A stretch of 22,519 nucleotides of DNA from Promethearchaeota archaeon. Lineage in GTDB: Archaea > Asgardarchaeota > Hermodarchaeia > Hermodarchaeales > Hermodarchaeaceae. Under the pieces are notes generated by a model. It was not told where the DNA came from. It saw only the letters and a program-made list of their open reading frames with translations, and did not search any database. Shown here piece by piece: positions 2,311 to 2,604 of this stretch (position 1 is its first letter; each line of letters opens with the position of its first letter). A program made the position numbers and the translations under genes. The stretch covers positions 1-22,519 of the forward strand of contig JBHLMI010000009.1 in the NCBI GenBank assembly GCA_048938295.1, written 5' to 3'.

Positions 2311-2604
2311 TCATATTTGTCGGATGTAGTTGAGCCAGGTTTCAGCTCGCATCGCGAATCGTCGCGCTTCTAATTCCTCCACATGTTGGGTGAGATTGGC
2401 ACCATATTTTGACAAGAAGTATTCATACCATTCCTGGGCTTCTTGGGTTACCGGGTGATTGGGACCGAGCATTGCTTCCGCAAAGGCAGCGACCACATCT
2501 AAATCTTCAAGAATATATTCAGCATTGATGCGCAGATTCGCTTTATTGATAGCGTTCACCAACCGTTCGCGCATTTCTGCAAAGGAACGCATTGGGTGTA
2601 CCAT
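2311..2604 (-). CDS. Small helical protein; putative stand-alone Vps28 C-terminal-domain paralogue
   Basis: In the operon between vps28 and vps22 (19 and 13 bp gaps). Manual alignment to the C-terminal domain of the adjacent Vps28: AEMRERLVNAINKANL vs ADIVSDLITLIDIAKL; EARRFAMRAETWLN vs EAKQLEFQAVRWLN. Confidence 0.65.
   Translation of the reverse strand: MVHPMRSFAEMRERLVNAINKANLRINAEYILEDLDVVAAFAEAMLGPNHPVTQEAQEWYEYFLSKYGANLTQHVEELEARRFAMRAETWLNYIRQI

Follow-up and report, generated by a model that had tools for sequence, protein, structure and literature searches.

The window analyzed here is the whole 22,519-nucleotide stretch of contig JBHLMI010000009.1 (assembly GCA_048938295.1), from a Promethearchaeota archaeon. 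[quoted passage not shown] The subject of this analysis is a small gene in that locus that encodes a 97-amino acid (aa) protein. A preliminary description of this DNA had placed this open reading frame (ORF) between vps28 and vps22, and its coordinates and neighbors were verified, with the ORF on the minus strand (Table 1). The ORF almost certainly encodes a paralogue of the C-terminal four-helix bundle of Vps28, made as a separate protein, and is referred to below as the free domain. It belongs to a run of minus-strand genes composed of a coiled-coil gene, UEV-Vps23, Vps28, the 97-aa ORF, and Vps22. Beyond the ESCRT run, RING, ubiquitin, E2, and E1 genes are found on the plus strand.

The free-domain gene is flanked by short spacers, and in each a Shine-Dalgarno-like GAGG or GGAGG is found ~9-12 nt ahead of the ATG. 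The spacer from vps28 to the free domain is 18-19 nt across the Hermodarchaeial orthologous loci, and the spacing from the free domain to vps22 is kept at 12-13 nt in Hermod- and Baldrarchaeial loci. The nearest public loci carry the label Hermodarchaeota, and Ca. Hermodarchaeum yapensis is 90% identical across the ORF. The genome (2.5 Mb, 91.6% complete) encodes a single PF03997 gene, which is Vps28, and a single EAP30 gene above the cut-off. No Vps36 GLUE domain was detectable in this genome, in agreement with the earlier statement that the system lacks GLUE.

Table 1. Positions of the ESCRT genes, their spacers, and one further long ORF in the window.
Feature	Coordinates	Strand	Basis
Vps4 ATPase, 5' end cut by the contig end	1..804	+	ORF; orthologues 1e-97 to 1e-117 in related loci
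Vps25, ESCRT-II subunit, 242 aa, convergent with vps22	816..1544	+	PF05871 E 9.9e-11, residues 106-203
Vps22/EAP30, 244 aa	1563..2297	-	PF04157 E 1.1e-26
Spacer of 13 nt, free-domain stop (TGA) to vps22 start, GGAGG motif	2298..2310	-	sequence
Free-standing paralogue of the Vps28 C-terminal domain (almost certain), 97 aa	2311..2604	-	ORF, ATG start, TGA stop
Spacer of 19 nt, vps28 stop to free-domain start, Shine-Dalgarno-like GAGG	2605..2623	-	sequence
Full-length Vps28, 218 aa, N-terminal core and own C-terminal domain (about residues 121-211)	2624..3280	-	PF03997 E 8.1e-13
UEV-coiled coil-steadiness box Vps23 homologue, 272 aa	3296..4114	-	UQ_con 6e-15, UEV 1.7e-4, Vps23_core 2e-4
Coiled-coil protein, 178 aa, first gene of the same-strand run	4135..4671	-	no significant Pfam match
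Very long ORF, 1674 aa	17137-22161	-	

The 97-aa ORF is a real gene and not simply a chance reading frame. Its 17 close homologues (92-97 aa) are 74-93% identical, and there are more distant homologues of 94-99 aa with 31-43% identity. The gene has been shown to be under purifying selection, with a median ratio of nonsynonymous to synonymous substitution rates (dN/dS) of 0.05 and a maximum of 0.13 among Hermodarchaeial orthologues (91 pairs). Met5 (position 2592) is a possible alternative start, and the ESM Atlas record begins at residue 5. Among public sequencing runs, a search listed no RNA run containing the gene.

At the level of sequence, the similarity to Vps28 is judged to be real but detectable with profiles only, because a Pfam scan of the ORF gives no VPS28 match and pairwise alignment sees the last helix alone. 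In the hmmscan search, PF03997 did not match at E <= 1 and the only hit was KNOX2 (E 0.05). BLASTP of the ORF against the neighboring Vps28 aligned the last helix with an E-value of 0.12. An alignment of the free-domain family (A2) was compared using hhalign to one built from full-length Asgard Vps28 proteins (A3), with a probability of 95.1% and an E-value of 2.9e-8. A significant match between hidden Markov models (HMMs), named beforehand as a check on the assignment, was thus obtained. The match is composed of 87 collinear columns, query 9-98 against Vps28 columns 126-216 (residues 121-211), and covers all four helices. The alignment made by hand in the preliminary description was recovered here, where AEMRERLVNAINKANL, ILEDLD, and EARRFAMRAETWLN pair with the Vps28 segments that had been named for them. 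The free-family HMM also matches the C-terminal part of PF03997-positive Vps28 proteins from other Asgard lineages. A profile search of PDB sequences found nothing significant; the best match, a TAF1 bromodomain (E 0.17), was taken as chance. The entire 97 aa aligns with the C-terminal domain, and the N-terminal core and steadiness-box hairpin for Vps23 binding are not present. Because the protein matches the C-terminal domain only, it does not count as a Vps28 orthologue, and the neighboring gene is the true Vps28.

Searches with single sequences were less informative. Among 1.8 billion representatives, three true distant homologues of the ORF were found. The other matches were long repeat proteins and were rejected as spurious; the two that were inspected are a TPR-like protein and an unrelated tandem-repeat protein. 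The turn between helices 2 and 3, A-M-L-G-P-N-H-P-V-T (window 2446-2475, residues 44-53), resembles the LGxxHPxT turn of kinesin-light-chain-type TPR repeats. Such a turn draws spurious phmmer matches, including a TPR-like repeat protein, with E-values of 1e-7 to 1e-4. A search of the ESM Atlas by features gave no usable match for the free domain.

The predicted structure also points to Vps28. AlphaFold2 on A2 gave a confident four-helix bundle with a predicted local distance difference test (pLDDT) score of 87.6 and helices at residues 4-23, 28-46, 51-67, and 77-96. In a Foldseek search of the PDB, the predicted fold superposed on the four-helix bundle of the Vps28 C-terminal domain, as the preliminary description had anticipated. 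The top entry was the Xenopus domain 2j9w, with a template modeling (TM) score of 0.83/0.81 and a root-mean-square deviation (rmsd) of 2.0 Å; the remaining entries had TM scores below 0.5 except one at 0.62. In the AlphaFold database (AFDB), the majority of the top 30 clusters are named Vps28 and were matched within their C-terminal domains. It is scarcely credible, then, that the protein is no relative of Vps28 and instead a generic HPt-like or TPR-like bundle of four helices or the decaying remnant of a vps28 duplicate, since the hhalign match is collinear over four helices and the Foldseek and AFDB matches are specific to Vps28. The individual forms of this explanation were rejected. For an HPt or CheA P1 domain, helix 2 is without a phospho-accepting His and there is no profile match to HPt; the only partly conserved His is His50, found in a loop and kept in 60% of the free copies. 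For a TPR protein, the AFDB list holds a single TPR entry with a TM score by query of 0.40. A pseudogene in decay is excluded by the dN/dS value and by conservation across classes.

Column-wise conservation was compared between the free and the Vps28-embedded domains, with residues numbered as in the window protein. The residues invariant in Asgard Vps28-embedded domains are Asp20 and Leu24 in helix 1, Trp59, Leu83-Glu84, Arg89-Trp90-Leu91, and Phe94. Only Trp90 is kept by the free family, which has a conserved set of its own: Leu15, Tyr30, Leu32, an invariant Glu33, Leu35, Lys66, and Tyr67. Glu33, at a position where Vps28 usually has Pro, is found within the helix-2 motif Y-I-L-E-E/D-L-D. 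This distinct signature speaks against a simple duplicate with redundant function, or a protein that only competes for the very same site, and favors a dedicated contact. Because the Vps23-anchoring core is absent, and because the family keeps invariant residues of its own instead of the Vps28-specific ones, the free domain probably has its own contact and is not a mere duplicate or blocker of the Vps28 site.

The same residues bear on the possibility of competitive regulation, in which the free domain would take the ESCRT-II site of the Vps28 C-terminal domain and uncouple ESCRT-I from ESCRT-II as a brake or timer. A fold and ancestry common with the Vps28 C-terminal domain, in a protein of 97 aa without the N-terminal core, would suit such a regulator. 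However, the Vps28-invariant residues are mostly not conserved in the free family, and in 33-34 of 36 loci the gene shares an operon with the two proposed competitors and lies between them, an arrangement seen more typically for subunits than for antagonists. Competition of this kind is considered unlikely.

Of 400 genomes from the phylum, 75 carry the free-domain gene according to the family HMM. It is present in all 18 genomes of the window's own family (f1), in all 31 of the Heimdall-type f7, where the upstream neighbor is a UEV-Vps23-Vps28 fusion, in 7/12 genomes of f12, and in the one genome of f6. Baldrarchaeia (f4 and f5) and Wukongarchaeia (f33) encode it as well, and Loki-type loci (f10) are without it. 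The Asgard survey suggested earlier thus finds homologues in ESCRT loci. On the same strand, 34 of the 36 distinct loci have Vps28 as the upstream gene, the other two being contig edges; downstream, Vps22 is found in 33/36, with two contig edges and one exception (f6). Near-strict synteny of vps28, the free domain, and vps22 has therefore been shown across several Asgard classes. In a maximum-likelihood tree built from 19 free domains and 18 embedded in Vps28, the two groups split with support of 100/99. As judged from this tree, the free copies have been shown to be monophyletic with a single origin, and the split indicates one old duplication and not repeated local duplications of the neighboring gene.

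Synteny also bears on whether the free domain could be a subunit of ESCRT-I, as a second bundle paired with either the C-terminal domain of Vps28 itself or the stalk of Vps23. The one universally adjacent gene is vps28 (34/34 loci with room upstream), and stop and start codons overlap by 4-8 nt in f6 and Wukong-type loci, both of which are consistent with such a subunit. Against it, no contact between two such C-terminal domains is known in eukaryotic ESCRT-I, and in the Heimdall-type lineages, where Vps28 and Vps23 are fused, the free copy is still present with its synteny unchanged. An ESCRT-I subunit of this type is quite improbable.

Several loci of the survey have features of their own. 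The f7 fusion is composed of UEV, the Vps23 core, and full Vps28 (467-489 aa, Pfam matches to all three), with the free Vps28-C gene beside it (L037:6170-7639, minus strand; L038:6164-7567, minus strand; L044:4142-5611, plus strand). It agrees with HeimAB125_14070, a fusion that Hatano et al. 2022 (PMC9192718) described. In the f6 genome (L040:4372-5693, plus strand), Vps28 (308 aa) has ~100 additional aa at its N-terminus. The free domain there is 132 aa with a C-terminal tail of ~27 aa, overlaps the vps28 stop by 4 nt, and has vps22 5 kb off on the opposite strand. Loki-type f10 loci have a Zn-binding gene of 446-448 aa on the opposite strand between vps28 and vps22 (L032:5560-6906, minus strand; L033:4065-5405, plus strand; L034:4205-5548, plus strand), with a weak match to a multi-zinc domain at its N-terminus. 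This gene possibly encodes the protein that Makarova et al. call Znr_PH_CC_SB. A single-query search with the 446-aa protein found it in f10 and f11 only, and no complementary distribution with the free domain is claimed.

Other genes near the free domain in this genome were also noted. Vps25 has an N-terminal extension of ~100 residues that is highly charged and Glu-rich, precedes the ESCRT-II winged-helix region, and is outside the Pfam match. The 178-aa coiled-coil protein has a basic tail and has homologues at the equivalent place in Baldr and Wukong loci (L042:3924-4364 and L043:3467-3994). The two Snf7/ESCRT-III genes of the genome are in tandem on another contig (G000:C6:13323-14403), and this tandem probably extends the locus upstream, beyond the truncated vps4 with which the window begins.

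The preliminary description knew of no report of such a protein. That statement does not hold, as Makarova et al. 2024 (mBio, PMC10936438) already reported that, besides full vps28, a separate gene for the C-terminal domain of Vps28 is present in some Asgard genomes, and suggested that the separate domain interacts with ESCRT-II. In their table for Heimdallarchaeota AB_125, cog.004115, taken from the asCOGs of Liu et al. 2021, appears with vps22 on one side and the UEV-Vps23 gene on the other, under the name 'Vps28 protein, C-terminal region'. Both cog.004115 and the window copy are small, stand-alone Vps28 C-terminal bundles encoded between vps22 and a Vps28-containing gene. The family HMM finds the f7 gene at the equivalent position (E 1e-10 to 1e-15), and sizes and order fit the AB_125 entry. 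Nothing essential is different between the two, and the window copy is the Hermodarchaeial orthologue. The finding is a correct rediscovery of a catalogued component; the existence of the gene is not new and was annotated in 2021-2024. Of the earlier interpretation, the Vps28-C identity and the ESCRT context in a GLUE-less system stood, whereas the novelty did not. The free domain is neither mentioned nor tested in the experimental Asgard ESCRT papers PMC9192718 and bioRxiv 10.1101/2023.07.25.550441.

Compared to the eukaryotic Vps28 C-terminal domain, which corresponds to the C-terminal half of PF03997 (PDB 2j9w, 2g3k, and 2j9u), the free domain is likewise a four-helix bundle of ~95 residues, with an rmsd of 2.0-2.3 Å over 92-94 residues, and has in common the Trp of the last-helix W-L-N motif. 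It differs in being untethered to a Vps23-binding N-terminal core or steadiness box, in its ~18% identity, and in having most Vps28-invariant residues replaced, with Glu33 and Lys66-Tyr67 as invariant residues of its own. Multidomain Asgard proteins also carry a Vps28-C bundle outside of canonical Vps28, in fusions with adaptin appendage, longin, or UFM1-ligase domains. These have been proposed to reach ESCRT-II without ESCRT-I, and none has been reported in Hermodarchaeia (Makarova et al. 2024, PMC10936438). They are large, linked to cargo or GTPases, and encoded elsewhere, whereas the window bundle stands alone inside the core operon.

Taken as a whole, the best explanation, with a probability of roughly 0.6, is that the free domain is an old Vps28-C paralogue acting as an accessory subunit at the junction of ESCRT-I and ESCRT-II. 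It would be made from one operon with Vps23, Vps28, and Vps22, with the Shine-Dalgarno-like motifs preceding the free-domain and vps22 starts, and would be a roughly stoichiometric subunit. Docking would most likely be on ESCRT-II, at Vps22 and perhaps at the helical region of its N-terminus, as in eukaryotes, where Vps36 is the docking site of the Vps28 C-terminal domain. The AlphaFold2 model of Vps22 (pLDDT 80.5) has a long helical N-terminus (about residues 3-70), and two winged-helix domains come after it. In eukaryotes, the C-terminal domain of Vps28 binds to ESCRT-II, and a like contact has been proposed for Asgard archaea (PMC10936438). In yeast two-hybrid assays, ESCRT-I contacts Vps22 in Loki and Heimdall (PMC9192718). 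Docking on ESCRT-II is put forward as a plausible, if tentative, proposal by analogy, because the Asgard two-hybrid data link ESCRT-I to Vps22 and because Vps22 here has the helical region of ~70 residues. Makarova et al. 2024 (PMC10936438) also reported a steadiness-box similarity of Asgard Vps22, but this was not recovered by hhalign of Vps22 against Vps28 with shallow alignments.

Two observations weigh against an accessory subunit that docks on ESCRT-II. Most Vps28-invariant residues are lost (Asp at position 20, Trp59, Leu83-Glu84, Arg89, and Phe94), and therefore the partner could differ from that of Vps28. Moreover, vps22 is not adjacent in f6 (L040), whereas vps28 is always adjacent, which leaves room for a partner on the ESCRT-I side. 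One co-folding job with Vps22, Vps28, and the free domain scored 0.00 compared to a mark of 0.32 and was used neither for nor against binding.

A partner farther downstream can also be considered. The yeast Vps28 C-terminal domain is reported to contact Vps20, and a free domain that took over this contact would bind ESCRT-III (a Vps20-like Snf7 protein) or Vps25 and help nucleate ESCRT-III. The conserved acidic helix-2 motif (Glu29, Glu33, Asp34, and Asp36) could suit the basic N-terminal region of ESCRT-III, and there are two Snf7 genes in the genome. However, the free-domain gene is never beside ESCRT-III or vps25 on the same strand and is always within the vps23-vps28-vps22 run. Such a downstream recruiter is considered unlikely.

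The accessory subunit at the ESCRT-I/ESCRT-II junction would bear on how Asgard ESCRT-I hands over to ESCRT-II, which is a puzzle because Vps36 and its GLUE/NZF modules are absent. Hatano et al. 2022 (PMC9192718) considered it probable that 'yet undetermined factor(s)' connect ESCRT-I to ESCRT-II in Odinarchaeota. The free domain, known here from Hermod-, Baldr-, Wukong-, and Heimdall-type lineages, is a candidate bridging factor of this type. A broader view, which is possible but doubtful, is that the free domain was an ESCRT subunit in its own right, ancestral in Asgard archaea and with a separate partner, either as a link between ESCRT-I and the GLUE-less ESCRT-II or as an ESCRT-III nucleator, and was later lost or absorbed toward eukaryotes. 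New here are the finding that the free copies are monophyletic, the counts for synteny and distribution, and the set of conserved residues specific to the family. One old clade, near-strict synteny, and a signature of its own favor a dedicated function and identify residues to mutate. The free domain is thus a well-defined experimental target for ESCRT-I/II coupling in Asgard archaea.
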